Shown: one piece after another, positions 25,921-49,478 of the stretch
Layout of the letters: the number at the start of each line of letters is the position of its first letter
Numbering within the stretch: position 1 is the first letter of the stretch
From: Minisyncoccota bacterium
GTDB taxonomy: Bacteria > Patescibacteriota > Minisyncoccia > Phycocordibacterales > PALSA-1337
Assembly (NCBI GenBank): GCA_041666915.1
Contig: JBAYFZ010000001.1
Coordinates: forward strand, 286,335-350,334
Direction: 5' to 3'
DNA length: 64,000 bases
Made by a program: the position numbers and the translations under genes
The notes under the pieces: generated by a model
The model's database searches: none
Seen by the model: the letters and a program-made list of their open reading frames with translations, nothing else
Told to the model about the DNA's origin: nothing

Positions 25921-25922
25921 GT

Positions 25923-31854: not shown

Positions 31855-33936
31855 CTAATCTACCGCTAGAAACATGTGATCGATCATTGCGACCCGAGAC
31901 ACGCTGTCGTTGCTTTTTATCTTCAGTCCGAATTCTTCTTTATTTATTGGAAGGTCGACTACAATTTTCTGTATGAAGCCTGGATCAGTCTTCGTGAAGG
32001 TTCCAACAAGATCGTCTCCGTTGTACAAATCAAAACTAAATGGCTTGTCGCTGAATACCGCAATCGACCCATTTGCATGGTTATCAGTAGTCATAAAGAA
32101 TGTGACTCCGTTGCAATTTATAGGATCGCCAATTTGCGGAAAACTTTGATATTGCTGGCGGCGATAGATCGGTGCTTCGCCGAGATTTTCATTCCATCCG
32201 ATGCCCCTACACATCATATTTGTGGTCGTGAGTATGCCGTTGATCAGAGTTACTTTTGCCCCTGAGATTCGAGTACTTTCGTAGCGATAGACATAGAAAC
32301 TGGTCGCATCGACCGGCTTGACGTACATAAGGCCGTTACCCCATTGATCAGAGGGATAATAGCTGCTGCTTGCAAGAGTCGTGTTCGTTCCCGATATGCT
32401 GAGAAGACCGAACTTCTGACGATCACGTCCTTGAAACTGCACCGTACCCCAATGAGCAAAGAATACGAATGTGTCTGTTGTGAGTTGATGCAGGAATTGA
32501 TATCGATACGAATAATTTGTGTCGAAACTAATCTGCACACCTGCTTGTACCGTAATTGTACTTCCTGAAGTCGTCACCACAGCCGAGTACCATCCACCTG
32601 AGCCGATGTAGGCAATCTGACACTTATCCGTTCCGTTTGGCGCAAGTTGAGGTTTTGATGTGGAAGCAATGCTTGCAAGTGATCCGTAAGACGGGACCGT
32701 TCCCGATACTGAAATACAGTAAAGGTTAATCGCTCCACCAGTCTCAAAGGCAATGATGGCTTTGTCGGTCCCTACTTTTACGAGCTGTTTATAACTTGGA
32801 GCAATAGCTACAATCTGGACCGGCGTATTAAGAGCTATACCGGTTCCAGAAATTGTCAGAACTGCTGTGTGAATATAATTTGACGCACCATTTGGAAGCG
32901 CCATCAAAACTTTGTCAGTGTTTATAACTACTGCATCGAAGTTATCGTTGTACCAGTCGACTGTGTACATGAGAAGTGGCGCACCCCAAGTAATCGTCCC
33001 ATTCACATTTGTATTTCCCACCACCGCATAGATTCCAGTTGTACCTGCCTGCTGACGATAAAAAGCAATGAAGCGAGATGAATCAAGTTCAAGAGTTTTG
33101 AATACGGCATTACCAGTGCTTTTTGCAAATGGAGACGACAATATTTGACTTTCAATATCACGAAGTTTTGTGTACACCGAGATAGTTTTGACAGTCCTAA
33201 TACGACGTTCAAGAAAATTTGGAGACCACATTTTTCTTGTAGCACCTGCACTAATCCAATAATCTCCATCAGGAAATTCTCGAACGATGTCTTGCTGGAT
33301 ACCGAACGCCCGATCCTCATCTCCGTCCCACGAGCTTCGGCCGATATAACATAATTCTCGGTTGGCGTACTGCTGTCCAGTAGAAGTATTGAACGCGCCT
33401 CGATAAGCTGGCATGATTACTGAATCAGCGTCACTTGCTACAGCACCTGCTCGATAGGTTCCGAGTGTCGCCGCATCAAAGGCATTCGGAGATACAAGGG
33501 TCGAAGTTGAGGTGATTGAATTGCCAGAAGTACCACCGACTTTTGCGGTGACAATAACGTCATTACCAATAATAGCAGTCGCCTCCACATCCCCATTGAG
33601 AGAGGTTGCTGATGCATATTGGCTTCCTGGAAGACCTGAGAGATTTATTGCTGCCATAACATTGGCACGAGTTGCTGCAACATTTCCACCGATTACGATC
33701 TGGCCGTCCGTGTTGGTGACAAGACTTGCAACAAAGGAGTAGGTCTTTGTACCTATCGTTATGGTTTCGCCGGCTGTCGGCTGATTTTGAAGTGTCAACT
33801 TCCCTTGTGCTTTAATTGCTGGCCACAGAAAGAGTCCGGGTTTATTCCACTCCACATATCTTGGAAGCGGAGAAATCTGTTGGCCCTTTACGGTTGTTGT
33901 TTTATCTATTCTTCGATCTACTTGTAAATTAATCAT
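31855..33936 (-). CDS. tail fibre / receptor-binding protein candidate
   Basis: 693 aa, Thr/Ser/Gly-rich beta-type composition in the tail module. Confidence 0.45.
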   Translation of the reverse strand: MINLQVDRRIDKTTTVKGQQISPLPRYVEWNKPGLFLWPAIKAQGKLTLQNQPTAGETITIGTKTYSFVASLVTNTDGQIVIGGNVAATRANVMAAINLSGLPGSQYASATSLNGDVEATAIIGNDVIVTAKVGGTSGNSITSTSTLVSPNAFDAATLGTYRAGAVASDADSVIMPAYRGAFNTSTGQQYANRELCYIGRSSWDGDEDRAFGIQQDIVREFPDGDYWISAGATRKMWSPNFLERRIRTVKTISVYTKLRDIESQILSSPFAKSTGNAVFKTLELDSSRFIAFYRQQAGTTGIYAVVGNTNVNGTITWGAPLLMYTVDWYNDNFDAVVINTDKVLMALPNGASNYIHTAVLTISGTGIALNTPVQIVAIAPSYKQLVKVGTDKAIIAFETGGAINLYCISVSGTVPSYGSLASIASTSKPQLAPNGTDKCQIAYIGSGGWYSAVVTTSGSTITVQAGVQISFDTNYSYRYQFLHQLTTDTFVFFAHWGTVQFQGRDRQKFGLLSISGTNTTLASSSYYPSDQWGNGLMYVKPVDATSFYVYRYESTRISGAKVTLINGILTTTNMMCRGIGWNENLGEAPIYRRQQYQSFPQIGDPINCNGVTFFMTTDNHANGSIAVFSDKPFSFDLYNGDDLVGTFTKTDPGFIQKIVVDLPINKEEFGLKIKSNDSVSRVAMIDHMFLAVD

Positions 33937-33950
33937 GGTAAAAAATTTAA

Positions 33951-34724
33951 TTAATGGATAATGCTTGTGATCCTTCCCTCGACATCTCTAATTGACCATT
34001 TCTTCACTCCGTCATAGATGCTTCGAAGTAGTTGATTGTCGTCATACTCGAACACGAAGGTCTTTCCGTTCACGTTGTCGTGAAGAGACCTCACGCTGCC
34101 ATCTGCATTTATCGCAACATCGACATACTCAAGTCCCGCTTGAATACCAGAAAGAGCTGCAGCCATGAGCTGAGAAAGTGTTACGGGCTGTGATGCACTC
34201 ACCGCATTTGGAACATTTGGTGAATTGATAAAATTATTGTTGCCTGAAAAAGTATTATTGCCGTTTGTCGATGCTTTTCCTGCAAGATTAGTGTCTACAT
34301 ATCCTTTCGAAACGACTTGTTTTGAATCATTAAAAGCAGGGTCTGCATCGTATTTAATTGGCTTTGTGGAATCGAGAGTATCATCACCATTTAGGATATC
34401 AACAATGATTTTGAGGTTCACGAAATCTGTCAGATAGCATTTTGATCCAGCTCTATGCCCGTTTAAGTTTTGGACTCCGGCGGTTTGGACACCTTGTCTC
34501 GAAACACTGAAAATACTAGTCATAGTTGTACCTGAGAGGTCAAACAAGAGATGCTCTTCATCACCAGTTCCTCGGTCGATAATCATGCAATATCTGCCTA
34601 CTGGCAGGTTTACGCCGTTCTTATCTGTGATGCTAGTTAGAGCTCCTGAAGTAGCACCGCTTGCAAGCTTTGTAGCAAGTGATGTTTCGAAGTTTGCGAT
34701 TACTTTTGTGAGTTTGCTCGACAT
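33951..34724 (-). CDS. tail fibre protein candidate
   Basis: 257 aa; ASQPVTLSQLMAAAL motif common in fibre proteins. Confidence 0.45.
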   Translation of the reverse strand: MSSKLTKVIANFETSLATKLASGATSGALTSITDKNGVNLPVGRYCMIIDRGTGDEEHLLFDLSGTTMTSIFSVSRQGVQTAGVQNLNGHRAGSKCYLTDFVNLKIIVDILNGDDTLDSTKPIKYDADPAFNDSKQVVSKGYVDTNLAGKASTNGNNTFSGNNNFINSPNVPNAVSASQPVTLSQLMAAALSGIQAGLEYVDVAINADGSVRSLHDNVNGKTFVFEYDDNQLLRSIYDGVKKWSIRDVEGRITSIIH

Positions 34725-34744
34725 GGTTTAATTATTTACTCTAA

Positions 34745-34770
34745 AAAATGTGAAAAAGTGTGTGCAATCA
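34745..34770 (-). promoter_or_regulatory. conserved 26-nt motif AAAATGTGAAAAAGTGTGTGCAATCA (copy 1), 20 nt upstream of the tail-fibre gene start
   Basis: identical 26-mer also at 39630-39655 and 42910-42935. Confidence 0.5.
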
Positions 34771-36669
34771 TTGATCCACATCTTTGCCATCTAGGCTCAC
34801 ATGTTCCTTTTGTCTATAGACTTTTGGTAGTTTGTCTTCATAGGTCAGGATGTCCCAATCTATCGATTCCATAATGCTCACGTACCCGATACCTTTAGCT
34901 ACAAATCGAATACTTCTTCGTCTAAATTTGGGTATTTTCATTGCTTTTATCTGAAGCTCATATGGGTATACCTGAGCTGCACCATCGCCACCGATAGCCG
35001 CTTCACCGATCATCGTCGTTCCCACACTTGATGGGCTTGATCGGTTAACGTACGTTCCATCGCCTCGAATCGTTCCAACAAGAGCGTATCCGGCGCCATC
35101 AAAGTCGGCATATACTTCTACATACTGAGCAGGATCTATTTCGCCTCGATAACGCAAGCGACGGTATTTTTTGAGTCGTCGAACACCATAAGTCTCATAT
35201 TTGCTATCCCAGTTATTTTGGATTACATAACTATCATCATCGAAGCCATTCAGGATTTTATAGACAGTTTGAGTGTGGGGACTTCCGCCATAGAGGACAC
35301 CAGAATCCTTGATGAGTGCTTTCATTCCGTAGTTTGAGATGTCCACAGTATTTTTTACTATGTCGATAACGAGAGTGCGATCGTTTACAATGCTTGATTG
35401 GGCGCGACAAGAGAGGACAATAAATTGTCCGTAGGTTTCCATCACCGCATCCGAATAATCAAATTTCTCCCATGCAAAATGTGGAATGAGTTCAGTCGCA
35501 AGAATGTCATCGCCGAGAGGATTCTTTTCGAGAACCGTGAGTTGAGGGCGATCTGGGTTTGCGGTATTTATAAAAACGACACCTCGGCCAGTTGTGACTG
35601 AGCTTTTTCGTGTAAGAACACCAATATTTCTTCGGACCACCTGGTTGTTAAATGTCTTATCATCGTCAGTGTATTTGTGCTGATACGCACTTTGCTTTTT
35701 TAGTGAGTAGTAGTTTCCATCGATACCAATCACGAGCTGTTGGATTGCATCACCACCTTCATCCTGACGGATTACGTCACCTTCACCCGCAAGACGAGAT
35801 GCGCTGTAAGTAAAATCTGCAACCCCTTTGCTTGTACTATTTTCCCAGACATAGTCTGCCTTGATATTATTCGCTGAGGCTGAAGGTATGGTTACGAAAG
35901 TGACGCTCCATGCACCTGTAATGTAATTTATAGTTCCTACGCCTCCAGCAGTTCCCTTAAGGTTTCCATTTTTATCATCAGTAAATATTTCACCTCCACC
36001 GTCAGTACACTTGATAGTTACGAGTCCGCAGTTTCGCTTCGGCTGACCTGACTTAAATAGAAGAGTGCCAGTGAATATTGTCTGTGATCCGTTTCCACTT
36101 CCGACATTCTCGTTTGATATTTGTGTAAAGCTTGTGCCGTCGCGCTGTACGTCAACATAACTTCGATAAAGTGCTGTCGCATCTTTTGCAATGCCCCAGA
36201 GATACATGCGAGCCTTGTCAATCAGAGGAAAACCGCAGAAAAAGTCAGTCGTAGTATAAAGCTGAATAAAGTTGCTGGGATTTGCGTTAGCAAATTTAAA
36301 TAATCCTCCAGGACCGCCTGCAAATGTCCATGCCCCGGTCAGTGAGCTGTAGTTTGTAAAAATGTAGATATCGTTTGGATTGAGACCAGTGACGACATCT
36401 ATCCAAGTAGTGCCATTCAGATACTGAATGGCTGTCGCTACTTTTCTCCAAAGAATGCCTGTACCATTTGCTTTGTATCCGACATGAATTGCAGGACATG
36501 AACCTGCTGCACCCTCGCTTCCGACTGTCACCTTCCCTCTGGCGAGTTCAAGCTTCCCATCAATGGTCACCCAATTGAGGGAGTCTCTAGCACTATCTTT
36601 TGGAGTATCCTCGTTATCTTCACGATTATGTACTCCCGATGCAAATTTTTTGATTTCATGATCTGCCAT
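34768..36669 (-). CDS. phage structural (tail) protein
   Basis: 633 aa, position between capsid and fibre genes. Confidence 0.4.
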   Translation of the reverse strand: MADHEIKKFASGVHNREDNEDTPKDSARDSLNWVTIDGKLELARGKVTVGSEGAAGSCPAIHVGYKANGTGILWRKVATAIQYLNGTTWIDVVTGLNPNDIYIFTNYSSLTGAWTFAGGPGGLFKFANANPSNFIQLYTTTDFFCGFPLIDKARMYLWGIAKDATALYRSYVDVQRDGTSFTQISNENVGSGNGSQTIFTGTLLFKSGQPKRNCGLVTIKCTDGGGEIFTDDKNGNLKGTAGGVGTINYITGAWSVTFVTIPSASANNIKADYVWENSTSKGVADFTYSASRLAGEGDVIRQDEGGDAIQQLVIGIDGNYYSLKKQSAYQHKYTDDDKTFNNQVVRRNIGVLTRKSSVTTGRGVVFINTANPDRPQLTVLEKNPLGDDILATELIPHFAWEKFDYSDAVMETYGQFIVLSCRAQSSIVNDRTLVIDIVKNTVDISNYGMKALIKDSGVLYGGSPHTQTVYKILNGFDDDSYVIQNNWDSKYETYGVRRLKKYRRLRYRGEIDPAQYVEVYADFDGAGYALVGTIRGDGTYVNRSSPSSVGTTMIGEAAIGGDGAAQVYPYELQIKAMKIPKFRRRSIRFVAKGIGYVSIMESIDWDILTYEDKLPKVYRQKEHVSLDGKDVDQ

Positions 36670-36672
36670 AAA

Positions 36673-37296
36673 TTAGACGAGTTTAAATCTGGCATCTCGG
36701 AGCTTCATATTCTTCATGTAACGCTGGTACTGGACCGCATTGTCCTGCATATTGCTGCGAGCCTTTTCAGACTTCTTTATAATTTCCTCATCAATAAGCA
36801 TCGAAAAGACAATCATTGGATGATATTCAGGTGGCAACTTGGGAGACGTGCCGACTGCAATGTCATCAGGACTGGTTTTGTAATCAAATTCATACGAAGC
36901 TCCTGCACCTGGGCTTTGTGCAAAGTTTATTTTTCCATCCGATGGATCTATCCAACAAACATTGCAGAATTGATTGGCATTTCTCTGTCCCATTGGCACA
37001 AAGTAATAAGGGCTTCTCTGGCTTCCTATAAAAATGACTTTGAGAATAGGTTCATTCTGATCTTCGCTGTAGTTTTCCATCAACTCGTCAAAGTCAGCTG
37101 GTACAGTAATCTTTCCATCACTTTCAACTACACCAGTCTTTTTTCTTCGTAGAAATTCCCACGGCTGTTCCATGTAAATGAGACGCAGTTTGTCATTCGC
37201 AAGAATAAGCTCCTCATCGCTCGACAGATCAGTTGTGTCGTCTGTATAAAGCTCGAAGCGTTCTATGATTTGTTGTCCTGTAAGTGGTGTTGCCAT
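36673..37296 (-). CDS. hypothetical phage structural protein (head-tail connector region)
   Basis: 207 aa, position only. Confidence 0.35.
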   Translation of the reverse strand: MATPLTGQQIIERFELYTDDTTDLSSDEELILANDKLRLIYMEQPWEFLRRKKTGVVESDGKITVPADFDELMENYSEDQNEPILKVIFIGSQRSPYYFVPMGQRNANQFCNVCWIDPSDGKINFAQSPGAGASYEFDYKTSPDDIAVGTSPKLPPEYHPMIVFSMLIDEEIIKKSEKARSNMQDNAVQYQRYMKNMKLRDARFKLV

Positions 37297-37386
37297 ATTT
37301 TTTATGCTTCCCAGTGGCAGAAGTAGTCCATTAGCAGTTCTACTTCTGCCACTGAGCCCCAGCGTGAGCTGAGGTCAGCGGAATCC

Positions 37387-38589
37387 TTAAGACTGAACTT
37401 GAACGTCTAGATATTGAGGCTTACCGTCGGCAAAGGTGAAGATTCCGTAGATAGCATCGGATCGAATGATCTTTGCTCGCTGATACGGATCGTCGACCAT
37501 TTCGACTTCGGCAGTGTCTTGAATAACCACGTCTATCGCACCCTTCTTACCGTAGTAAGAGTGGATGAGGTTCTTGGTCAGCGTGTAGGTAGCGTTTCCA
37601 CCAAATACAAGGCGACCTGAACCAGTTCCAGTAATAGTGATCTGATCAGTCGTATCGTTGTCGACAGCAGCAAGCTGAAGATCTACCCAGTTTGACTGGT
37701 CATAACCAGGATCAACGTCAGTCCATGCGACGTACTTCGTACCGGCTGTGCCAGTAGTTTGGTGAATCGCATCGATCAGGTTGTCTCGAGTGGCATCAAC
37801 GCCTGCTTCGATAAGCACGTTACCTGGCGTAGCACCAATTGCGGCCACGAATGTGTACACGAAGCCGTTGATCGAGAATGTCTCGCCAGCTGATGGATTT
37901 GCTGCCATCGTGATGATCGCTTCAGCGAGAAGGTTCTCGGAGAGATAAAGCTCCGCACCGCCCACGGGACCCGCATATCCGTTTTTGAATGCGGCAGCAG
38001 CGAGATCAATGTTTTTCGACATGACGTACTGCTCAATCACCGATCCGCCATAACTGTCGATAACAAGAGCAAGATTGGTGAGATCCTGATTCGCTCGGCG
38101 CAACTTCGCACGACCCTGAGCCAAAAGCTGAGGAATGTTTGTAGTGGAGAGAACGATCGGAGTTCCGTTCGATGTCATTGTGGTGAGGTCGCCGGTATCG
38201 AATGCTTGCTGAGCATTCTTAACCTGAGCGAACACATCGGCATCAATGTATCGAGAGAGCTTCTTAGCAACTTCTGCACCGATTGTCTCGGCAGGATTCA
38301 AGGGACCAGCCTGAATCATTTCCTTCTTCGAGACACGGAAGTCTGCACCCTTGTTCTTGTTCACGAGTAAGGTTTCGCCGGAGTCATTGAGCTGGTCAAT
38401 GGTTCGGTTTACTCCAATCGTGATGTTACGAACACGAATTGGCGCAAGAGAATACTTCACACGCTTTACGCTCGCACCGTAGTCGAGCTTTTTTTCAAGG
38501 CGCGTGTTTGCGATCTCCATCGCAACGAGTACCTTGTCGAACACAGCCTGATAGGCGTTGTCGAACTGTTCTTTAAATACTGCTAACAT
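37387..38589 (-). CDS. major capsid protein candidate
   Basis: 400 aa, directly downstream of the scaffold-like gene. Confidence 0.55.
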   Translation of the reverse strand: MLAVFKEQFDNAYQAVFDKVLVAMEIANTRLEKKLDYGASVKRVKYSLAPIRVRNITIGVNRTIDQLNDSGETLLVNKNKGADFRVSKKEMIQAGPLNPAETIGAEVAKKLSRYIDADVFAQVKNAQQAFDTGDLTTMTSNGTPIVLSTTNIPQLLAQGRAKLRRANQDLTNLALVIDSYGGSVIEQYVMSKNIDLAAAAFKNGYAGPVGGAELYLSENLLAEAIITMAANPSAGETFSINGFVYTFVAAIGATPGNVLIEAGVDATRDNLIDAIHQTTGTAGTKYVAWTDVDPGYDQSNWVDLQLAAVDNDTTDQITITGTGSGRLVFGGNATYTLTKNLIHSYYGKKGAIDVVIQDTAEVEMVDDPYQRAKIIRSDAIYGIFTFADGKPQYLDVQVQS

Positions 38590-38635
38590 AAGAGGAATAA
38601 AATTAAGTGAATAAATTTACCCTCTCAGATATCAA

Positions 38636-39502
38636 CTACTTATTCTTGTGACGTGAACGCTGGGTAAGGCGATCGATCAGGCTCTCCTGATACTTATCAA
38701 ATTCCTTACCGCCCTTTTCTCGGGATTCAGCAATGCGCTTGTGATCCTCATCCGTAGGTTTGGTGTAATCCGGTTCCTTTGGATGATTACCTCCCTGCGA
38801 GCTGTAGCCTTCCATTCCTGGTTCAGGCTTTTCTGCATCGCCATAGAGTTCCTCGAGGATGTCTTCCATCGTGCGTTTGAGGTTTTCCTCGCTCGACATG
38901 ATGTACTTCCTGACGGCTTCTTTTTTGGCGATCTTTCCTAGCTCTGGGTTTTCGGCAATTACTCGGTCAAACTCTTTCGAGATTGCTCCTGCAATCTGAG
39001 CGGCATTGATCTCCTTTGACTGGGCTTCAGTCTTGGACTTAATGTCTTTGATGTCTGAAAGGTACTCGTCCTCGAATTGCTTCTTGGACTTTGAGAGGAG
39101 TGCATTCGCAAGCTTTCGAGTAAACTCGGGATCTGCACTTCCTTCGATGAGCGCTTCGATTTCGTCTTTAGCGTCAGCTCCGCGCGAACCTCCCTTCTTG
39201 ATCTGCTCCTGCAAATCTTTGATGGTAGGAATGACCTCATCTCGGATCATTTTTTTCATCTCACGATTCTCCTTCTTGAGATCGTCAAGGAGTTCATCTT
39301 TCTCGATCTCTGCCCGATTCCTTCGTGGTTTCGAATCGCCTGGCTTTGACCCTTCTCCCTCTGCAATCTGTGCAATCGATTGACCATTTGTAGGGTTGTC
39401 TGAATCTTTCTTGCCGTTCTTATCGATTGGCTGAGATTCCCCTGCGGCTTTTCCTGACTTGTCGTCAGCGGGTGCGGCTTCCGTATGATTTTGTTTGTTC
39501 AT
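38636..39502 (-). CDS. scaffolding protein candidate
   Basis: 288 aa, highly charged (K/E/D), helical. Confidence 0.5.
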   Translation of the reverse strand: MNKQNHTEAAPADDKSGKAAGESQPIDKNGKKDSDNPTNGQSIAQIAEGEGSKPGDSKPRRNRAEIEKDELLDDLKKENREMKKMIRDEVIPTIKDLQEQIKKGGSRGADAKDEIEALIEGSADPEFTRKLANALLSKSKKQFEDEYLSDIKDIKSKTEAQSKEINAAQIAGAISKEFDRVIAENPELGKIAKKEAVRKYIMSSEENLKRTMEDILEELYGDAEKPEPGMEGYSSQGGNHPKEPDYTKPTDEDHKRIAESREKGGKEFDKYQESLIDRLTQRSRHKNK

Positions 39503-39629
39503 AATTGTTTACGTTTTTATGCAATGGTTTTCGCCCCATTGATGCTCGATTGAAACGCAGAGCATTAGCGCCGTTACCTTTTTATTAATAAGAGGTTGGC
39601 CCCTCTATGCTTATAAGTGTGTAGCACTA

Positions 39630-39655
39630 AAAATGTGAAAAAGTGTGTGCAATCA
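39630..39655 (-). promoter_or_regulatory. conserved 26-nt motif copy 2, just downstream of a bidirectional terminator and upstream of the scaffold/capsid module
   Basis: identical 26-mer. Confidence 0.5.
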
Positions 39656-39663
39656 ATTAAAGA

Positions 39664-39694
39664 AAAATCACCGGTTAACCGATGATTTTTTCTT
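39664..39694. terminator. near-palindromic terminator AAAAATCACCGGTTAACCGATGATTTTT
   Basis: read directly. Confidence 0.5.
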
Positions 39695-39726
39695 GATAAT
39701 TCCTTTACTTTTTCTTTATCTTTTCT

Positions 39727-40119
39727 TTATTTTGCCAAATCCGCCGAGGCACTAGGCCGCTTTCGTGCAAGCTCGTTGAGCAAGATATCCAAGTCTTCAT
39801 CCGCCCCTATAAAACGTCTGAGCATTTGCACAGAGGCTTCAAAGCGAGCAATGACCGATATCAACTTGCCAAGCTCGGGGCTATCGTGAAGAACCGCAAA
39901 GAGTTCATTCATTGCCTTACGAGATTCATTCTGAAGACGATCAATGGTGTCTTTGCCGGCAGGAGTTCTAGACCATGAGATTAAATCTTGCGATACATCA
40001 ATGGCTTTATTGAGTTCTTCAACTTCGGCTTCCTCTGCCTGTTGTTTTTCTTGATCTAATTCCTGTGCCGCGTCGTGCGGACCAGTGAGATCTGCTTGTG
40101 TGTCTGGTTGTTCACTCAT
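39727..40119 (-). CDS. hypothetical acidic phage protein
   Basis: 130 aa ORF. Confidence 0.4.
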   Translation of the reverse strand: MSEQPDTQADLTGPHDAAQELDQEKQQAEEAEVEELNKAIDVSQDLISWSRTPAGKDTIDRLQNESRKAMNELFAVLHDSPELGKLISVIARFEASVQMLRRFIGADEDLDILLNELARKRPSASADLAK

Positions 40120-40490
40120 AGTTTTAATTGTTTACGGACCAGCGTATTTTCCTTTTCAAGCGTTCGGAGAATACTTTTCGCCTGCAATTCCTGATCCTTG
40201 AATTGCTTAGCTTTGTTTTCCTGCATCGCAAGCATGGTGAGAGCGAATCGCTTTTTTGGCGATAGCTTCTTGATGTATGCGACAAGCTCGGGATTTGCGC
40301 GACGAATATTTTCTGCCAGGGCATTCTGAAGCTTTGCGTTCGCTTCCATTTCCCTCGCCTGCTTTTTGATCTGGTCAATATTGCGAGCCATTTCTCGCAG
40401 AGAAAATTCAGCAACTTGCCCATGTTTTGTGATTCGATAGTCGCCTTTATCCTTAGCTTTCCTCTCGATTTTATAAGTAAATGCTGGCAT
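40116..40490 (-). CDS. hypothetical coiled-coil phage protein
   Basis: 124 aa ORF, 4-nt overlap with downstream gene. Confidence 0.4.
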   Translation of the reverse strand: MPAFTYKIERKAKDKGDYRITKHGQVAEFSLREMARNIDQIKKQAREMEANAKLQNALAENIRRANPELVAYIKKLSPKKRFALTMLAMQENKAKQFKDQELQAKSILRTLEKENTLVRKQLKL

Positions 40491-40507
40491 GGTATGACAA
40501 CGAGATA

Positions 40508-40831
40508 TTAATTCGTTCCTATACCATCAGGACTTGATGCCGACCCCGCATCTAGTCCACCTTCAGGAGAGGTGTTTCCTGCATCAGCAGACTCCGGAGC
40601 TGTTGGAGCTACGGGAGCAGTTGTCTCCGTTCCTGTCGGAACAGATTCTTGAGATTCGACATCAGGTGCAGGAGCTTGTGGCTGTCCGCCATTAATATTG
40701 TAATCTTCACGAGCCTGTCGCTCTGTGTCGAATTCTGGGCTTCTAAAAATAACCGATCCTTGTTCGTCGTAACGCTTCCATAGCCACTTGCCGTTAGCTT
40801 CGACGAACTTTACATTGTTTGATTCTGACAT
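40508..40831 (-). CDS. YegP/DUF1508-like domain protein with low-complexity tail
   Basis: 107 aa; KFVEANGKWLWKRYDEQGSVIFRSPEFDTERQAREDY resembles the DUF1508 repeat. Confidence 0.45.
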   Translation of the reverse strand: MSESNNVKFVEANGKWLWKRYDEQGSVIFRSPEFDTERQAREDYNINGGQPQAPAPDVESQESVPTGTETTAPVAPTAPESADAGNTSPEGGLDAGSASSPDGIGTN

Positions 40832-40861
40832 AATTTTATTGATTAAATTAAATAATAATTG

Positions 40862-42886
40862 CTACGTTGTAAGCGCAGCCGTTTCTGCCGTCCGAGTGGC
40901 AGGATCGCCAAGCGCGACTTTTCCATTTGCTGCAAGATCAGGGTTATCGAGTGCGGCTCCATCGACCATTCCGCGCCCTGTACCACTGATCAAGCCTTCT
41001 TTGGAAACTTGCGACATCACCGAACGTGCAGCATTTCGCTCCACAATCGGAACGATCTGGTCGATGTATGCAAAGACTGCGTTATGCTGTTCGGAAGAGA
41101 GTTCGTGATCAAACTTGTCAGACTTATCGATGAGTCTTTGGAGATACGCTGTGTTGGCATCTTTGTAGAAAGGAACTTTGCGACCTGCAATGAGAAGTTG
41201 GAACACTTCTTCAGCTTTTGAAATAACCTCGGAATAAGAGTAGTCGCTCAAATCAAGCAGACTGTTCACTGTATCGTCTTCGATTCCTGCGATGACCGCT
41301 TGAGTTTTGAATAAGACTTTTTGATTTATATTCTGATCACCTTTGTAAGCGCCGAGAAATGTGAGCTTGTTTTTGCTGTCAGCAAGATTGCTCTGGGCTT
41401 CAGCGATGCTTGATTCAACGAGGATGTCATAGTCGTCTTGAAATGGTTTCAAATCTCTTGCACTCACCATTTCTATCTCAAGACCCATTGAGCCTACGAT
41501 CTTGACAGCCATTTTCTTTTTCAAATCCTGCATCACACCCTCTTTGTGCAAAACAGCGAAGCGATAGTAACCCTCTGCATAGCTTTTATTCAAAAGTCCG
41601 AAACGATCACCTGCTTGCTCAAGATTTCCCTCGTAAATTCCAAGCGTATCTTCATCGCTCGTACCTTTGACACTTGAAGTAACTCCGCTTTCAGATTCCA
41701 CGATTGTCTCGAGCTTGTCATACACCGAGAACGGACCTTGTATCGGAGGAGTCTGTCGTGTCTGAAGCACCTTGTTTACGTCGATATTGCCTTCGATTTC
41801 AATGTAGCCGTCTTTTCGATAGCGTACCTGTGCAAGGTTGCGAACATAATCAACGTTCACGGCAGTCTGAGGTCGGTTGATCTGTTCGGAGTTGTCGAGC
41901 GACTGGTTGATGCTCTTTTCCTGCGCCATGAATATACCTCGGGCATAATCGCAGTAAGATGGTGTCCAAAATTCACGAGGATCTGGGAATGCCGCCCATG
42001 TCCATATCGGATACTTCTCGCTCTTTCGGATATCTTTCCAAGGCTCACATCGAATGCATTCGCCGGATGGAGTTAGTACCAAATAATAACGGTCATCATT
42101 CTCGTCTGTCGTTATCCATGTGTAAAAAACAAATTGATTCTCGTTTTTGAAACGCTCTCGGGGAGCTCCATTGATCTTTCGATTGTCTTTATCAAGATCC
42201 TGTTGAGTCTTTGCTGTGTTATTGCCTCCACCATCAAGCAAACCCTCCACGACTTTCTTGTAGTAGATTCCATCTTTGACACCTTGTGTGAGCTGAGCTC
42301 GTGTGAGTTTCGTATTCCACCATCCAAGGTATGAAGCTTTCTCGACTCCGCTTCCATCTTCTTCTTCAGTACATAAACCGCCAACATCAGGATCAATGAG
42401 AAAGTCTTTCGGATCTATCAAATTCAAAAGGCTTTTATAAATTCCTTTGTCGTTTCTGGTGAGATATAAATAAATGGTGCGACCATAAATCGCCGCATCG
42501 CGCTTTCCCATCAGGTCTTTGAAATTCCAACGTCCGACTTTTGAGTCCTTGTCTCTGATCGCATTCATCAAATCTGCCTTCTTCATGTCTCCAGATTCAC
42601 CTTTGACGTATTTAAATGTGAGAGGGCTGTCTATTTTTGAGAGGATCGTATGCACAAAGCCATGCATCTTGAAAAGTGGAACTTGGGCTCTCGTATCGCC
42701 TGCCTGCTGATAAGTACTACCGCCATATGGAGAAGTCACACTCGGATTGGCACGATCGGGATTCATCATGTCTTCGTTTTTATTCCACGAAGACATTCGT
42801 GCTTTCTTATAGCGATATGAATAATCAATCTCCTTGAGGGATTGTGATGCGAGTGTGTCTCGGGTTTTATAGTGCGCTAACGACAT
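40862..42886 (-). CDS. portal protein candidate
   Basis: 674 aa directly downstream of TerL. Confidence 0.55.
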   Translation of the reverse strand: MSLAHYKTRDTLASQSLKEIDYSYRYKKARMSSWNKNEDMMNPDRANPSVTSPYGGSTYQQAGDTRAQVPLFKMHGFVHTILSKIDSPLTFKYVKGESGDMKKADLMNAIRDKDSKVGRWNFKDLMGKRDAAIYGRTIYLYLTRNDKGIYKSLLNLIDPKDFLIDPDVGGLCTEEEDGSGVEKASYLGWWNTKLTRAQLTQGVKDGIYYKKVVEGLLDGGGNNTAKTQQDLDKDNRKINGAPRERFKNENQFVFYTWITTDENDDRYYLVLTPSGECIRCEPWKDIRKSEKYPIWTWAAFPDPREFWTPSYCDYARGIFMAQEKSINQSLDNSEQINRPQTAVNVDYVRNLAQVRYRKDGYIEIEGNIDVNKVLQTRQTPPIQGPFSVYDKLETIVESESGVTSSVKGTSDEDTLGIYEGNLEQAGDRFGLLNKSYAEGYYRFAVLHKEGVMQDLKKKMAVKIVGSMGLEIEMVSARDLKPFQDDYDILVESSIAEAQSNLADSKNKLTFLGAYKGDQNINQKVLFKTQAVIAGIEDDTVNSLLDLSDYSYSEVISKAEEVFQLLIAGRKVPFYKDANTAYLQRLIDKSDKFDHELSSEQHNAVFAYIDQIVPIVERNAARSVMSQVSKEGLISGTGRGMVDGAALDNPDLAANGKVALGDPATRTAETAALTT

Positions 42887-42909
42887 GATTATTTAAGTGT
42901 AGATACAAA

Positions 42910-42935
42910 AAAATGTGAAAAAGTGTGTGCAATCA
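42910..42935 (-). promoter_or_regulatory. conserved 26-nt motif copy 3, overlapping the TerL stop codon and 23 nt upstream of the portal start
   Basis: identical 26-mer. Confidence 0.5.
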
Positions 42936-44621
42936 AATGCCGATGTCTGGATATTGCGGACCTTCATCCACCAGTTCGTCTTCATATGCAGGTTTCACTT
43001 TTCCATATGGAGTGTCGATCAAGCGTTCAGGTCGGGCATCTCGGGGCTTTTCCGTTCCGGCAGGTCGTGCGATATCGCTTTGATACGCTGTCGCATCGCT
43101 TATGTCGTCATGATCGGCATCGGGAAAACGCACGAGCTCGTTTTCAAGGTCTTTGCATTCGCCTTGCAGGTGATACACGCTCCTGGTCTCGTAGCGGTAC
43201 AAGAGTCCGGTGCGAATGCGATCTTGTTTTGATCGACCCTCATGCTTGAGCCACGTCAAAGGTAGGAAAGTTTGCCGCACTCTCTGTTCGTGTCGAAGCA
43301 TCGGCTCAAGCCCACGAGTGAATGCAGTATCTTCCCATCCCATCTTCAAAGGAGGCGTGCCTGATTGTATAAGAAAATTATAAATGCCGAACATTTTCTC
43401 AATGATTCCAGTGGGACCGAGTTTCTCTCTCCAAGCTTTCAGATGCCACTTTCCCTCTCGGTCGATCCAATTGATGCAGAAGCCGACAAAGTCTCCGCCT
43501 GCGGTTACTACGCCATCTTCTTTTCTGCTCGGTGTGTCGATCGTGACGTATGCCGCAAGTTTCTTTTCAAGTAGAGCTTCCCATGAGATCGGCATAAACC
43601 ACTCTCGCTTAAAGAGGGCTTTCATTTCATCTATCGGCTGACAAAGCATTTCCGCTTGGAAGTCCATGTCGCCTTCTTCTGGTGTCCACATAGATCTTCT
43701 TTTCGCATCAATGCTTGTTTTGTTTGTAGCTTCCGCTTCGGCATCGGTCATCACCCATCTTTGCGGCCACGATGGTGTATGCAATCCGGACATGAGCGTT
43801 CCTTGGCAAATCGGGACGATGCGAACCTTGAGTTCAGGATCATGCTTGGCACGCTCTATCGTACTTTGTACATTTCCGTATTCGCTCAGGATATTTCCAA
43901 GATACATAACCCTGCGACGTTTTGAGTCGAGACCTCGCTTGAATTCTTGGATGTGCATGCGTACCTGACTTGTTGCCGCTTCGCTTCTTAGTGTCTTCTT
44001 TGTTTCAAAATCATCGAGCAAGACGAAGCCTGGGCGCATCGCTCCATGCACTCGACCTCGCACGCTTTCTTGTGTGCTGTGTGCTTCAACACGGATGCCT
44101 GCTTTTATGATCCTTCCGTATTCATCTTTCTTGGGATTGGTGACGAAATCTTTTACGCGCTTTTGAGTTATCTGATCCTTTGAACGCTTCACGTTGTACA
44201 GCTCACCAAAATCATTGATGAAGCGACTGTTGGTTTGAAGCTCCCAGACAACGTCAAAAAGGATACGTTCGGAGTTGGTGCTATCAAAAGCATCGACGTT
44301 TATGTACGGCTCTATCTCATAGGCGATCATGTAAAGAATAAGCGCCTTAGCAAAACTCGTCTTTGCACTTTCGCCGAACATAAACCATGCGACTTCTCTC
44401 ACTTTGAAATCAAGGAGGTCATGCACATCCCTCATCATGTCGTAATGGAACGACGCAAACTCGCTCCAGATATAATGCTGGAGATAATAAGTGACAAAGT
44501 AGCCGAAGTGCCTACGCAGTGCCTTCGTACGCGCCGCTATGTTGCTCCCCTTGAGGAATTGGATTCCCTGTTGGTTGATCGGAGATGCTACTTCCAGTAG
44601 TTGGTCGTTTATCGTTTCCAT
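42933..44621 (-). CDS. terminase large subunit
   Basis: 562 aa; ATPase Walker B VLLDDFET and terminase nuclease-type C-terminus; start uncertain (110-nt overlap with upstream ORF). Confidence 0.8.
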   Translation of the reverse strand: METINDQLLEVASPINQQGIQFLKGSNIAARTKALRRHFGYFVTYYLQHYIWSEFASFHYDMMRDVHDLLDFKVREVAWFMFGESAKTSFAKALILYMIAYEIEPYINVDAFDSTNSERILFDVVWELQTNSRFINDFGELYNVKRSKDQITQKRVKDFVTNPKKDEYGRIIKAGIRVEAHSTQESVRGRVHGAMRPGFVLLDDFETKKTLRSEAATSQVRMHIQEFKRGLDSKRRRVMYLGNILSEYGNVQSTIERAKHDPELKVRIVPICQGTLMSGLHTPSWPQRWVMTDAEAEATNKTSIDAKRRSMWTPEEGDMDFQAEMLCQPIDEMKALFKREWFMPISWEALLEKKLAAYVTIDTPSRKEDGVVTAGGDFVGFCINWIDREGKWHLKAWREKLGPTGIIEKMFGIYNFLIQSGTPPLKMGWEDTAFTRGLEPMLRHEQRVRQTFLPLTWLKHEGRSKQDRIRTGLLYRYETRSVYHLQGECKDLENELVRFPDADHDDISDATAYQSDIARPAGTEKPRDARPERLIDTPYGKVKPAYEDELVDEGPQYPDIGI

Positions 44622-45120
44622 TTTCTTGTGATGTTGTTTTTGACGGCAGTAATTTTCTGAATCCGAACAATTCTTCTATACGAAGATCGTCTTCATCGGT
44701 GACGAGCATTGTGCCGGCAAGTCTCTCGCCCTTGCTTGTTAGATCAATGTGCTGTGGTGGTCTTCCATCGAGATATGCCCATACGAGCTGAATCATTTTC
44801 GGATCGCCTTCAATCGCCAGTTTTACAATCTTCTGCGCAAGAGCTTCTTCAAGCGGTAGTGGATTGCCAAACTCATCTTTTGCTTCAAGGGCGAGAAGCC
44901 TTTCTCGTACCCTGTGCGTGAGCTGTTTTATTCCTGACGGGCGACCTGTGGGATTTCCTGAAAAGCCTGGCTTGAAGCGACCAGAATCATCCCTTACCTG
45001 ATCTTTTCCTGATGTATCAGGTGGAACGACATCGGACTTGATGTCCTGCTTCACCTGTTCTTGCCCTGTTACAGGCGGTATCAGGAGCGGTTTATCGTTA
45101 TTATTTTCTTGATTATTCAT
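44512..45120 (-). CDS. terminase small subunit-like protein (DUF5681-like)
   Basis: 202 aa; RFKPGFSGNPTGRPSG motif; position immediately upstream of TerL. Confidence 0.45.
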   Translation of the reverse strand: MNNQENNNDKPLLIPPVTGQEQVKQDIKSDVVPPDTSGKDQVRDDSGRFKPGFSGNPTGRPSGIKQLTHRVRERLLALEAKDEFGNPLPLEEALAQKIVKLAIEGDPKMIQLVWAYLDGRPPQHIDLTSKGERLAGTMLVTDEDDLRIEELFGFRKLLPSKTTSQENGNDKRPTTGSSISDQPTGNPIPQGEQHSGAYEGTA

Positions 45121-46420
45121 GTGTCGTTTTTAGCCAGTTTTCCGGCTGACCGTTTTTAATGATCGATTCGATTCCGGTGTAGTCGACCCATCGCTGAACC
45201 ACTACATCCACAAACTTCGGATCAAGCTCAATGCCTGCACACGCTCGGCTCGTTTTGTGGCAGGCAATGAGAGTACTTCCGCTTCCAAGAAACGGATCGG
45301 CAATCAGGTCATCGACCTTTGAGCTATTGAATAGTGCATAAGTGATGAGTTCCACTGGCTTTTGAGTCGGATGCTTGTATTCGCTCACTCGATCACGCTT
45401 CATCGTCCATATCGTGAGCTTTCCCTCTGTCTCGAGCTTACGCTGTCGCTTCGCCCAGTTGAGAATCTTCTGATCGCTGTCATGAAAGTTCAGGACCGTA
45501 TGATTTCTTCGATCCCCGTAGAAGACAGCTTTCACTCCTTCCTTTGAAACGTAGAAGAACGGCTCATGCTTCCATCGGTAATCTCCCCAGCCCATAGATG
45601 CCGTTGGCTTATTCCATATGAGTTGGTTATGGACCGACATTCCCTGCTTCTTCAGAGCTGATTCAAACTGCGCCTGCGTTGAGGTTGAGTGGAAGACGTA
45701 CCATCCGGCTCCGCCTTTTGCAGACTCGGCTATCCGAGCGAACACGGCTTCGAGGAATGTATCGAATGCCACATCTGCCATATTGTCGTTGAGAATTTTC
45801 TGGCTGGTATTCTCGCCACGCCCCGAATAATTGACGTTGTATGGCGGATCAGTAAAAACGCAATCAGCTTTTCTGCCCTGCATTATTTTCTTCCATGATT
45901 CTTCCTCGGTTGAGTCTCCGCATGCGATCGTGTGCGGACCGAGCTGATACACGTCGCCTATCTTGCTCTTAGGCTCTACAGGAGTTTCAGGCACGACATC
46001 ATCTTTCTCATCGTCTTCAACAAGCAGGTCTTTGGTGAAGCCGGTGATTGTTATGTCGAAGCCTGCAATTTGCAGTAACTTTAGGTCAGTGATGACTAGT
46101 CCCATGATCCAGTCGCTCTCATTGAGCTTGTTGTCCGCTAATCTGTAGGCAGTCTCTTGTGCTTCAGTGAGAGGAGCTGTCTCGGGACCGCCAAACACAT
46201 TTTTTCCGATGTCGTCCATGATCCATATCGGCTTCAGCTCGTCTTTGTATTTTTCCCATGTCGCAAATCTTCCGTGACCTACAACGATCACACCTTGCTG
46301 ATTCACAATTACAGGCTGTCTCCAGCCTACCTCCTTCACGATTGCGGCGAGCTTGGTGAGCTGTTCGACAGGATGCTCTTTGGCATTATTTTTGTATGGT
46401 TTTATGTCAGTGATTTGCAT
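45113..46420 (-). CDS. ParB-like nuclease domain fused to DNA methyltransferase (N6A/N4C)
   Basis: 435 aa; N-terminal ParB-like region, FTDPPYN (motif IV), DPFLGSGST (motif I). Confidence 0.85.
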   Translation of the reverse strand: MQITDIKPYKNNAKEHPVEQLTKLAAIVKEVGWRQPVIVNQQGVIVVGHGRFATWEKYKDELKPIWIMDDIGKNVFGGPETAPLTEAQETAYRLADNKLNESDWIMGLVITDLKLLQIAGFDITITGFTKDLLVEDDEKDDVVPETPVEPKSKIGDVYQLGPHTIACGDSTEEESWKKIMQGRKADCVFTDPPYNVNYSGRGENTSQKILNDNMADVAFDTFLEAVFARIAESAKGGAGWYVFHSTSTQAQFESALKKQGMSVHNQLIWNKPTASMGWGDYRWKHEPFFYVSKEGVKAVFYGDRRNHTVLNFHDSDQKILNWAKRQRKLETEGKLTIWTMKRDRVSEYKHPTQKPVELITYALFNSSKVDDLIADPFLGSGSTLIACHKTSRACAGIELDPKFVDVVVQRWVDYTGIESIIKNGQPENWLKTTHE

Positions 46421-46837: not shown

Positions 46838-47257
46838 TTAAATTTGTTGATGATTAATCGAATCTGATTCAAGGATCTTTCCGCAAAAGCTACATCTTTT
46901 TATCCATCGAATATGCTGACAATTTTTGTGACGTTGTTGCTCTGCTAAGTTGCGAATGTACTCGTACGAACCCTCGACCAACTTTTTCTTTGTTTGTTTT
47001 GTATCTCTGTAAGTAATATGGAGATACTTTGTCTTCTTTGCCTTGCTGTAAACCTTTGCAACTTTGTCAGGCAGAACAGTTTTAACTTTTACTTTTCTCA
47101 CCCATCCTTTCGATCTGACGTGGTAGTGAATCGTACTGTGGTATATCCGATAGAACACCGATATCCATTTAATTTTCCACCCATAATCTTCAAAAGATTT
47201 ACGGATCTCTTTTAACTTTTGGGGAGATAGTTTGTAGCATCGATGTTTTGCTTTCAT
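46838..47257 (-). CDS. hypothetical Cys/His-rich (zinc-ribbon-like) protein
   Basis: 139 aa; C-terminal CQHIRWIKRCSFCGK. Confidence 0.35.
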   Translation of the reverse strand: MKAKHRCYKLSPQKLKEIRKSFEDYGWKIKWISVFYRIYHSTIHYHVRSKGWVRKVKVKTVLPDKVAKVYSKAKKTKYLHITYRDTKQTKKKLVEGSYEYIRNLAEQQRHKNCQHIRWIKRCSFCGKILESDSINHQQI

Positions 47258-48393
47258 AGGAGTTTTTGGACAATCGCTTGGACCGTATTAACGGTCACAG
47301 CATTGCCGAGACACTTGTACCTTTGCGTGTCGCTTATTCCCTCAGTCCATCCGTCAGGAAATCCTTGGAGGCGTTCACATTCCGTTGGTGTGAGTCTGCG
47401 GATCTTTATCTTCTTGGACCAGACTATCGGTGTCTGACCTCCGCCCATTCCTGCCGCCTGTGTGACTGTCGGAGAAATGCCATCTTTTCGTGGTTTCTGG
47501 TGGGCTTGCAGTCCGCCCACTGCGTACAAGCCTGTCTTTGCCCCGAGTCCTCCTGCCTGGCTTGCGATCGTGGTTGAAATTCCTTTCGGATCGTAGACTC
47601 GGTTTCCCTGGCTACCGCCTATGATTTGACGTGGCGATCTTTTACCAACATAAGTTCCGTTCGAGTCTGCGGTAACACGTGTCGTGATGGTTGGTAGGAC
47701 AATATCCTCGCTGTTGTTTTCGGTGAAAGGAAATACTTTCGGTCGGGTCGTGCCTCTAAGATGTCCAACAATGAACACGCGCTCCCGATTCTGAGGGACT
47801 CCGAAATTCTTAGAGTTAAGCACCTGCCACTGAACGTCGTACCCCAGTTTAGTAAGCGTGGCGATGATGATCTTGAAAGTACTGCCATTGTCATGAGATA
47901 GCAGTCCTTTGACGTTTTCCAGAAGGAATAGTCTTGGCTTTTTACTTCGGAGAATGCGTGCAATGTCAAAAAACAGCGTTCCTCGTGTATCTTTAAAGCC
48001 CTTCCTTTTTCCAGCAATTGAGAAAGCTTGGCACGGAAATCCTCCGACCAGTAGATCGAAGTCGGGTAGCTTATTTGGTTTGATTTTTGTGATGTCGTCA
48101 TAATTTTTATGTTCTGGGAAATGCCTCTGGTAGATTTCGACTGCGTACTTGTCGATTTCCGAGTAACCCGCACAAGTAAGCGGTTCTTGTCGTGAGCTGC
48201 TGCGGTGATCGTGTTTGCCAGATCGTCCTCTCTCGGGACCAATGCTTTGAGATTTCTTGTATCCTTTACCACACCCAGTCTTCTCAAGCGCTTGGCTTCT
48301 TCTGTTCTTCTTTCCGTTAGCTGTTTCCACATATGCGTTGTGTATTCCGAGCTCGAATCCGCCAATGCCGGAGAATAAGCTTAGATACTTCAT
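47254..48393 (-). CDS. DNA (cytosine-5)-methyltransferase
   Basis: 379 aa; FSGIGG (motif I), GGFPCQAFS (PCQ), ENVKGL (ENV). Confidence 0.85.
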   Translation of the reverse strand: MKYLSLFSGIGGFELGIHNAYVETANGKKNRRSQALEKTGCGKGYKKSQSIGPERGRSGKHDHRSSSRQEPLTCAGYSEIDKYAVEIYQRHFPEHKNYDDITKIKPNKLPDFDLLVGGFPCQAFSIAGKRKGFKDTRGTLFFDIARILRSKKPRLFLLENVKGLLSHDNGSTFKIIIATLTKLGYDVQWQVLNSKNFGVPQNRERVFIVGHLRGTTRPKVFPFTENNSEDIVLPTITTRVTADSNGTYVGKRSPRQIIGGSQGNRVYDPKGISTTIASQAGGLGAKTGLYAVGGLQAHQKPRKDGISPTVTQAAGMGGGQTPIVWSKKIKIRRLTPTECERLQGFPDGWTEGISDTQRYKCLGNAVTVNTVQAIVQKLL

Positions 48394-48809
48394 CAGGCAT
48401 TAATGTTGATACTTATTTCTACTCGACCTTTTGAATCTGGCGCATAATCAGACTCGAAACTACCATCTAGAAATTTATCGTTTTTGAATAGAGCGTCAGC
48501 GATACCCTTGAAGACATTGTCAGGGTCGGCGTGCAGTCCATTCATCCAGTAAATCTTTATATCCATTCGTGCTTTTTCTGATGCAGTAGTTGTTAGTGGT
48601 TGATCGTCTAGGAGAATTTGTTTACCATCGCACATTACAAATTCTGGGTAGTCTTTATAGAAACATCTACGGACATAACTTTTCCATGCGTGGTATTTCT
48701 TTGCTCCTGGAAGCCACAAAGCTCTACCAACTACACGAACGTAAGGGACCGGATTACCATAAATATCTTCTGGATTCCCTTTTATAGTGAATTGAATTGT
48801 TTTCTTCAT
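48393..48809 (-). CDS. RusA-like Holliday junction resolvase
   Basis: 138 aa; HADPDNVFKGIADAL resembles the RusA D-x-D-N catalytic motif. Confidence 0.55.
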   Translation of the reverse strand: MKKTIQFTIKGNPEDIYGNPVPYVRVVGRALWLPGAKKYHAWKSYVRRCFYKDYPEFVMCDGKQILLDDQPLTTTASEKARMDIKIYWMNGLHADPDNVFKGIADALFKNDKFLDGSFESDYAPDSKGRVEISININA

Positions 48810-48813
48810 TTTT

Positions 48814-49374
48814 TTAATAGTTATTTTTATTAATGCTCATGTGTCTTGTGATTTCCCCTATGCGTTCCTTGAAGTTATCCACAGGATGCCTAATACTAGG
48901 TTTCTCTTTTTTCTCTAGGTTTTGTGTGTTAAATCTTTTAACCAGTTTTGGTAAAGAGCGTTTACCACTTTTGGTTAACTCTCTTAACTGGTTAATTTCG
49001 TTTACTACTTTATCCACATCCATATGCAGGTTTAATTTGTAGCGATTTCCTTTGGACCGTTGCTGTACAGAAATAACTCCAACCTTGATAAGATTTTGAA
49101 GAGCGGAGTTTACTGAGGGTCTAGATAATCCAGTACCAAAATCTAGGCGTTTACCTTGGCTAGTCTTGATACCATTTTCAAACTGAGAAAAACTTATATT
49201 GTCTTCGTCTTTATGGAATCCGAAAGTGCGCCTGCATATGTAAAGTAAACATCGAGCTTCCGCCTCAGAGATTCGAGGAAGAACGAGATCCAAAATAATA
49301 TTTGGAATCTGCGAACTGTTTGGTATTAAATTTTGTTTTTGGTCGTCCATAGTTTTTTGAAGAGAGAGAAGCAT
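48814..49374 (-). CDS. replication initiator / replisome-organiser-like winged-helix protein
   Basis: 186 aa, position upstream of RusA and downstream of the ATPase. Confidence 0.4.
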   Translation of the reverse strand: MLLSLQKTMDDQKQNLIPNSSQIPNIILDLVLPRISEAEARCLLYICRRTFGFHKDEDNISFSQFENGIKTSQGKRLDFGTGLSRPSVNSALQNLIKVGVISVQQRSKGNRYKLNLHMDVDKVVNEINQLRELTKSGKRSLPKLVKRFNTQNLEKKEKPSIRHPVDNFKERIGEITRHMSINKNNY

Positions 49375-49478
49375 CGATTGCTCGATGTTTCTTCTCTGGT
49401 TATTGAGGGCTTAGCCCCCGATCTCAGCCCTCATACCACTGCGATCAGGGCTGAGTCAGTGGCCAAGCTACTTAGTTT

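Follow-up and report, generated by a model that had tools for sequence, protein, structure and literature searches.

Three identical copies of a 26-nucleotide (nt) element stand at the heads of structural gene operons in a prophage of a candidate phyla radiation (CPR) bacterium, and each is probably the upstream, factor-binding half of a late promoter that appears to be read by a 139-aa protein of the phage itself. The window analysed here is a stretch of 64,000 nt from a Minisyncoccota bacterium (assembly GCA_041666915.1, contig JBAYFZ010000001.1, positions 286,335 to 350,334), and all coordinates below refer to it. As judged from sequence, the best reading of the three sites is that of activator-dependent phage late promoters, functionally like promoters that depend on PhoB or MotA. 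A late promoter or activator site had been proposed for the motif in an earlier reading of the window made without database searches (the sequence-only reading), and this proposal is supported by the position of the element at three syntenic operon heads, an invariant hexamer of the -10 type, the lack of a -35 box and co-variation of the element with a helix-turn-helix (HTH) protein.

The 26-mer (AAAATGTGAAAAAGTGTGTGCAATCA, or TGATTGCACACACTTTTTCACATTTT in gene sense; all adjoining genes are on the minus strand) occurs three times with 0 mismatches, as originally described (Table 1). A scan of both strands of the 64 kb that allowed up to 8 mismatches returned no further copy, and at up to 3 mismatches 100 dinucleotide-preserving shuffles gave 0 matches. 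The flanks of the copies had been called divergent, which is true only in part: on the downstream side the likeness of the three copies extends for 18 nt past the 26-mer at 80-84% identity, and this extension contains a -10-like hexamer that begins exactly 8 nt past each copy. At the other end, the TGA that opens copy 3 is the stop codon of the large terminase gene (TerL, open reading frame [ORF] 42933-44621), an overlap that had been noticed, and the TGA that opens copy 1 is the stop codon of a 633-aa ORF (34768-36669), which had been missed. The stop-codon bases are retained at the non-coding scaffold site too, which argues that they are part of the recognised element. As to the genes downstream, the portal (PF23899, SU10_portal) and capsid (phrog_544) assignments of the sequence-only reading stand; its scaffold label derives from gene position only, and its tail-fibre label for the 257-aa gene could not be verified, as this protein has no family or PDB match.

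The layout shared by the sites consists of two half-sites at about -41 to -35 and -29 to -23, a T-tract at about -23 to -19, and the hexamer nATAyT at -12 to -7. In the window, half-site A is CACAC (about -40 to -36) and half-site B is CACAT (about -28 to -24), 12 nt apart. The 26 nt are frozen because almost every position belongs to one of the two half-sites, to the T-rich spacer or to the first part of the T-tract. The canonical sigma70 -10 features (TAnnnT, with A-11 and T-7) are present, whereas a -35 element 16-18 nt upstream is absent, and positions -35 to -30 are lineage-specific. A scan of 33900-45200 found no -35/-10 pair at the three sites, in agreement with the original statement that the motif is not a simple sigma70 pair.

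If the usual distance of 7 nt from hexamer to transcription start is assumed, the tail promoter is predicted to start at the A of the 257-aa gene's ATG, which lies at 34724, 6 nt past the hexamer; the message would be leaderless. At the portal site the ATG (42886) is 9 nt past the hexamer and the predicted leader is about 2-4 nt, and at the scaffold/capsid site the predicted start is near 39608-39611, about 108 nt before the scaffold gene, so that the transcript would carry a structured leader. With an ATG 6-9 nt past the hexamer, the tail and portal mRNAs would be leaderless or near-leaderless. Such starts fit this host: no gene of the window has a recognisable Shine-Dalgarno sequence, and a TATAAT or TACAAT stands 6-7 nt ahead of the ATG in several host genes (on the minus strand, for instance, upstream of 54847, 7022 and 57950). 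TAnnnT is enriched at -15 to -12 (14 of 50 ORFs), an indication that this CPR host commonly makes leaderless mRNAs. A canonical host promoter, TTGACA...TGcTATAAT, is found at 55290-55321.

Relatives were collected by a portal search, which found 16 IMG/VR loci and 17 GTDB genome loci. All 17 of the latter are in metagenome-assembled genomes (MAGs) of Patescibacteria/CPR (Saccharibacteria, Parcubacteria/Paceibacteria and UBA5187), several within contigs of 130-690 kb; from this we infer a podovirus-like prophage within a CPR chromosome. In one uncultivated virus genome (UViG), which has 80-86% DNA identity to the window, all three 26-mers are 100% kept. The exact 26-mer is not present in the other relatives, whose portals are 76-87% identical. 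It occurs in one IMG/VR contig, as three syntenic copies, and has 0 matches in JGI metagenome contigs. The motif is therefore not an abundant repeat that occurs regardless of context, a possibility that the sequence-only reading had raised.

An equivalent element is found at the three syntenic sites in about 30 relatives. At the portal site it falls in the gap from the TerL stop to the portal ATG; at the scaffold site it follows a T-rich terminator tail and precedes a conserved scaffold leader; and at the tail-module site it lies between the 633-aa and 257-aa genes. The location at late operon heads that would be expected of an activator-dependent (class II-like) late promoter is conserved among these phages. 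Relative to the ATG, 21 distinct sequences of the tail-module site form a gap-free alignment: A-11, A-9 and T-7 are present in 21/21, T-10 in 18/21 and C-8 in 15/21. The T-tract spans -23 to -19 with an invariant T-21, and 6 nt invariably separate the hexamer from the ATG. In all relatives, the first of the three sites listed above likewise has the upstream stop codon in the opening bases of its box (TAA in GTAAT, TGA in TGAAT).

The sequence upstream of the T-tract behaves differently: it is identical across the sites of one phage and differs between lineages, with at least 12 types. Examples are GTAATGCACGCAATTTTGCA, GTAATTCCTACAG, GTAATACACCCT, TGAATACCTACCG, TGAATCCGTGGTC and GTAATTGACACA, with GTAATGCACGCAA as the box of another lineage beside GTAATTCCTACAG; that of the window is TGATTGCACACAC. 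The longest block common to all sites of one phage is about 10-29 nt, and the 26-27 nt of the window, although at the high end, are not unique (29 nt in L007, 25 in L028 and 24 in L020). When the -41 to -35 segment is compared with the rest of the element, the likeness rises to a sharp peak at an offset of 12 nt, and identity at this offset is 0.52 within a phage vs 0.40 between phages (permutation p = 2e-4). The element is thus a tandem direct repeat of a phage-specific half-site.

The candidate reader of the half-sites is encoded at a place where a late regulator is usually found: a 4-nt overlap joins its gene to the upstream C5-methylase gene, and the packaging and structural genes follow right after it. 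The 139-aa protein belongs to no Pfam, NCBIfam or PDB family; its only PHROGs match is a weak one to an HTH family (phrog_517, E 0.005), and a BFVD fold search gave no match at E <=1e-3. Among 1.84 billion proteins, 126 representatives were found at E <=1e-3, and the family, which is small and carries no annotation, comprises 63 clusters at 90% identity. Its invariant residues include G26, W27, G51, W52 and C113-x-H115...C122-x2-C125. In an AlphaFold2 model (predicted local distance difference test score >90 for residues 10-80), helices 12-23, 29-36 and 40-50 form a three-helix HTH, followed by two more helices and a short beta hairpin that bears the CHCC ligands. The part of the family that varies is exactly the predicted recognition helix (residues 40-50). 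Distant homologues (L076-L081, 27-32% identity) reside in other phages, and in three of these (L076, L077 and L080) there are three copies of a canonical promoter, TTTACA-N17-(TG)GTATAAT, upstream of the factor gene.

No other predicted DNA-binding protein is common to all relatives, and no core protein diverges more than the 139-aa one. Between the window and the UViG with the same box its identity is 95%, vs 35-45% for phages with other boxes, while its neighbours are 65-90% identical. When every prophage ORF was compared with its homologues in the relatives (18 phages and 23 ORFs in the first set), the 139-aa ORF tracked box divergence best (rho 0.55-0.66; Mantel p 0.002; partial Mantel p controlling for the neighbour 0.003). 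In the same phages rho was -0.03 for the ORF resembling the small terminase (TerS) and -0.18 for the adjacent 135-aa ORF. The set was then enlarged to 24 distinct phages by adding metagenome loci found with the 139-aa family itself; the correlation with the box was 0.34-0.46 for the 139-aa ORF (Mantel p = 2e-4), 0.17 for the portal, 0.08 for TerL and -0.18 for the 135-aa neighbour. We regard this co-variation as suggestive.

Paired cases are in our view more telling. With 67% identity overall, the homologue in L040 retains STIHY..RSKGW, and the box ATTGCACACAC is retained too; the homologue in L035 is 64% identical, has DSVVFH.RKRGW and goes with a different box, TGAATCCGTGGTC. A homologue only 44% identical (L026) shares IHxHVxSKGW together with an ACACAC core; L015 and L051 have HKSIRFH..TNGW and AATACCyAC in common; and all TTCCTACAG phages have DPRAIRFHAGNNGW. 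The L035 locus (GTDB CAIMDG010000001.1) is of further interest when set beside 46838-51694 of the window: its early proteins are 92-99% identical and its late proteins about 82-88%, and its boxes differ. Together with the 64% identity of the HTH-zinc protein, this suggests a mosaic junction of recent origin close to the regulator gene, the regulator apparently moving with the late module.

A mechanism can be proposed on this basis. An early/middle operon would make the 139-aa HTH-zinc protein, which would bind the two half-sites at about -41 to -23, probably in the form of two protomers that lie on the same face of the helix. It would recruit or stabilise host RNA polymerase carrying the primary sigma factor and would stand in for the missing -35 contact at promoters where the polymerase sees a usable -10. 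Three units would be switched on in this way: the portal gene with three small genes, the scaffold, capsid, adaptor and 633-aa genes, and the distal tail genes.

Several observations weigh against this proposal or limit it. The late hexamer departs systematically from the host TATAAT (C-8 in 15/21, T-12 rare), and this deviation may indicate that the host primary sigma is not what recognises it. A CATACT hexamer fits deliberately weak promoters, and it also leaves room for a phage sigma-like component. There is no copy of the element before the terminase genes, so that these late functions would need transcription from upstream. The co-variation is moderate (rho 0.34-0.66, depending on region and set), and in the nearest-neighbour test of helix against box the HTH protein and the portal score the same (16/24 each); this test is non-discriminating, as close relatives have everything in common. 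The sequence does not fix the sign of regulation. Finally, the motif, architecture, synteny, conservation and co-variation were computed, and from these transcript starts, late expression, binding by the 139-aa protein and positive control are computational predictions.

If the sign were negative, the sites would be operators, at which the HTH-zinc protein represses by covering the -35 region and silences the structural genes in the lysogen in the manner of an operator or stoperator. Late genes have to be kept silent in a prophage, neither an integrase nor a CI-like repressor was recognised in 27-52 kb, and the sites do overlap -40 to -24 of promoters with a good -10 hexamer. We nevertheless consider repression unlikely. 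Promoters without a -35 or extended -10 element should be weak unaided; the gene is co-directional within an early/middle operon rather than part of a divergent immunity module; and there are three copies in 64 kb, none of them near early promoters or the gene's own promoter. The same lack of -35 and extended -10 elements, the absence of a copy at an early or autoregulatory position, and a gene position typical of a late activator lead us to favour activation. A phage sigma-like system, in which the HTH-zinc protein acts as sigma region 4 and a conserved partner such as the 135-aa protein handles CATACT or binds RNA polymerase, would accommodate the deviant hexamer and seems quite unlikely; a sigma reading proper was rejected, since no prophage ORF has a sigma domain and hhalign against the sigma of phage 7-11 was negative.

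It is about equally improbable that host RNA polymerase reads these promoters alone or with some other factor and that the link to the 139-aa protein merely reflects common descent. The moderate co-variation and the uninformative nearest-neighbour test would allow this, and capsid and portal distances also correlate with the box (rho 0.37-0.40); however, boxes that are specific to a lineage, the same at three sites of a phage and repeated at a 12-nt offset are beyond what host polymerase alone can account for, and the 139-aa protein is both the only predicted DNA-binding protein common to the relatives and far more divergent than its neighbours. Least likely is that the motif is a DNA site for packaging or recombination (pac-like, or serving module exchange) or an RNA element. 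HTH folds like that of the 139-aa protein are also known in small terminases, transposases and resolvases, and repeats at module borders could promote exchange between phages, but such a site would leave the fixed distances to the -10 hexamer and start codon unexplained, and a pac site read by TerS was rejected because the TerS-like ORF does not co-vary with the box. The RNA-level element that the sequence-only reading had offered as an alternative was also rejected: the motif folds no better than shuffled controls (z = -0.55, 0.31 and 0.16), and Rfam 15 gave no family at gathering score, its matches in the window being two tRNAs only, with sub-threshold matches near copy 2 that correspond to the terminator hairpin.

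Table 1. Features of the prophage late region and its candidate regulator (window coordinates)
Feature	Position	Strand	Description
Predicted late promoter P(tail)	34731..34770	-	26-mer 34745-34770, 8-nt spacer, hexamer AATAAT 34731-34736
Predicted structured 5' leader of scaffold/capsid transcript	39503..39615	-	three hairpins, conserved
Predicted late promoter P(scaffold/capsid)	39616..39655	-	26-mer 39630-39655, 8-nt spacer, hexamer CACACT 39616-39621
Intrinsic terminator	39663..39690	-	12-pair stem and T-tail; closes portal operon, 7 nt upstream of copy 2
Predicted late promoter P(portal)	42896..42935	-	26-mer 42910-42935, 8-nt spacer, hexamer TACACT 42896-42901
139-aa protein, homeodomain-like HTH and C-terminal CHCC zinc motif	46838..47257	-	candidate half-site reader

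Two further features adjoin the scaffold/capsid promoter. The terminator that the sequence-only reading had placed directly before copy 2 was borne out (Table 1), and relatives have T-rich tails at the equivalent position. The scaffold/capsid leader, of about 108 nt, is kept in all of roughly 25 relatives: hairpin P1 (AGAGG/CCUCU) is invariant, and P2 and P3 have undergone compensatory changes (7 of 16 predicted pairs). It has no Rfam match. By analogy with scaffold autoregulation in phage P22 it could be a translational operator; alternatively, it could be a 5' stabiliser.

The phage region spans about 27-52 kb of the window and has a G+C content of 45%, vs about 37% in the flanks. Besides the portal and major capsid protein, it encodes TerL (phrog_38), an SU10-type adaptor (PF24175), DUF5681, a ParB-methylase, a C5-methylase, RepO, a Sak4-like ATPase, RusA and an amidase endolysin. 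Megablast of 34-44 kb against 50,697 phage genomes and tblastn with the portal against cultured phages gave no match; tblastn with the 139-aa protein gave HTH-level matches only (E about 0.2), and the 633-aa and 257-aa proteins had no match among PDB sequences. The prophage is flanked by host ychF, G6PD and two tRNA-Ala genes, and the host G6PD gene is also present on a 450-kb metagenomic contig. At the right border the 3' end of ychF is imperfectly duplicated (51842-51870 and 52101-52129, about 260 bp apart), with a small membrane-like ORF on the plus strand between the copies; the duplication looks like the remnant of an att site. At the other side, a DpnII-type restriction-modification cassette (24295-26879, minus strand), composed of a D12 Dam-like methylase, a DpnII endonuclease and a second N6/N4 methylase, adjoins the prophage endolysin gene (27231-27836). 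The prophage's own methylases are the ParB-fused N6/N4 methylase and the C5 methylase.

To our knowledge, almost nothing is known about gene regulation in Patescibacteria/CPR and their phages, and the CPR phage literature that we found consists of metagenome-derived descriptions without any promoter account. If confirmed, this would be the first description of a regulatory circuit in a CPR phage, with a defined 40-bp promoter and a candidate cognate factor, and would provide evidence of leaderless mRNA use by both host and phage. There is also a bolder possibility, to which we give a low but real chance: that CPR podophages carry a previously undescribed promoter-specificity system, composed of a variable HTH-zinc protein and the tandem box with 12-bp spacing that it reads, possibly with the conserved, Tudor-like 135-aa neighbour as an RNA polymerase adaptor. 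With the adaptor, the arrangement would possibly resemble sigma appropriation or a split sigma. If this is true, protein and promoter would form at least 12 mutually orthogonal pairs, in which a code leading from recognition helix to box could be read, all driving leaderless transcripts. Genetic systems for Saccharibacteria now exist (PMC10633639), and the diversified factor-box pairs could supply orthogonal, switchable promoters for them. For phage biology in general, the system would represent a further, non-homologous answer to the problem of a late promoter without a -35 box.

Among known systems, the closest in function and architecture are the pho boxes of PhoB and the middle promoters of T4 MotA, and the closest in the look of the sequence are the promoters of phage 7-11. 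In the pho box of Enterobacteria, two direct-repeat half-sites about one helical turn apart replace the -35 element upstream of a normal -10, and PhoB substitutes for the contact of sigma region 4 with the -35. The elements described here likewise have tandem direct-repeat half-sites in place of a -35, just upstream of the -10. They differ in that the predicted reader is a phage-encoded homeodomain-like HTH protein with a zinc motif rather than a winged-helix response regulator, in a period of 12 vs 11 nt, and in being phage late promoters with predicted leaderless mRNAs. MotA/AsiA-dependent middle promoters of T4 have a host-type -10 and no -35, and a phage protein whose box lies near -30 turns host polymerase to the next temporal class. 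Our sites share the first two properties, as phage promoters; however, the T4 box (TGCTTtA at -30) contrasts with a tandem repeat from -41 to -23 whose sequence differs between sister phages, and no MotA or AsiA homologue was found among the prophage ORFs with Pfam or PHROGs.

Late promoters of phiEco32-like phages have the consensus tAATGTAtA. In Salmonella phage 7-11 the late promoters have been mapped experimentally as GTAAtg-(16)-aCTA and are read by the phage's own sigma (PMC8948821). As in 7-11 and phiEco32-like phages, several bipartite, phage-specific copies precede late genes here, and the starts, which are predicted ones in our case, lie 6-9 bp past the downstream element (PMC8948821). 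SU10-type portal and adaptor families, moreover, have been tied to phiEco32-like phages (PMC4281155). The upstream element begins with GTAAT(G) in most relatives of the prophage and the downstream element ends in ACT, which adds to the resemblance to 7-11. In contrast to 7-11, the spacing is 29 rather than 16 nt, there is an additional half-site as well as a T-tract, no prophage ORF shows a sigma domain such as that of the ECF-like sigma encoded by phages of that type, and the box of the window itself is TGATTGCAC, with TGATTG rather than GTAATG. The 139-aa and 135-aa families gave a probability of <1% in hhalign against 7-11 gp47, and the resemblance may be coincidental.

Mor and C of phage Mu, and Ogr of P2 and Delta of P4, are small phage DNA-binding late activators (Ogr binds zinc) that act at a few promoters without a good -35, at sites that are dyad-symmetric and further upstream (about -43 or -55). 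The present system is similar in its small, phage-encoded protein with predicted DNA binding and its handful of late promoters without a -35, but its sites are direct repeats and not dyads; neither Mor (PF08765) nor Ogr_Delta matched any prophage ORF in a Pfam scan at E up to 1, and a search for the GcrA family domain gave no match. Stoperators of Cluster A mycobacteriophages are oriented repressor sites that occur by the dozen throughout the genome, including inside operons, unlike the three copies found here, each of which stands at an operon head with a -10 hexamer. The mechanism proposed here is itself familiar from these systems; what sets it apart is an undescribed factor family, an unexplored host group, and a visible specificity code between factor and box.

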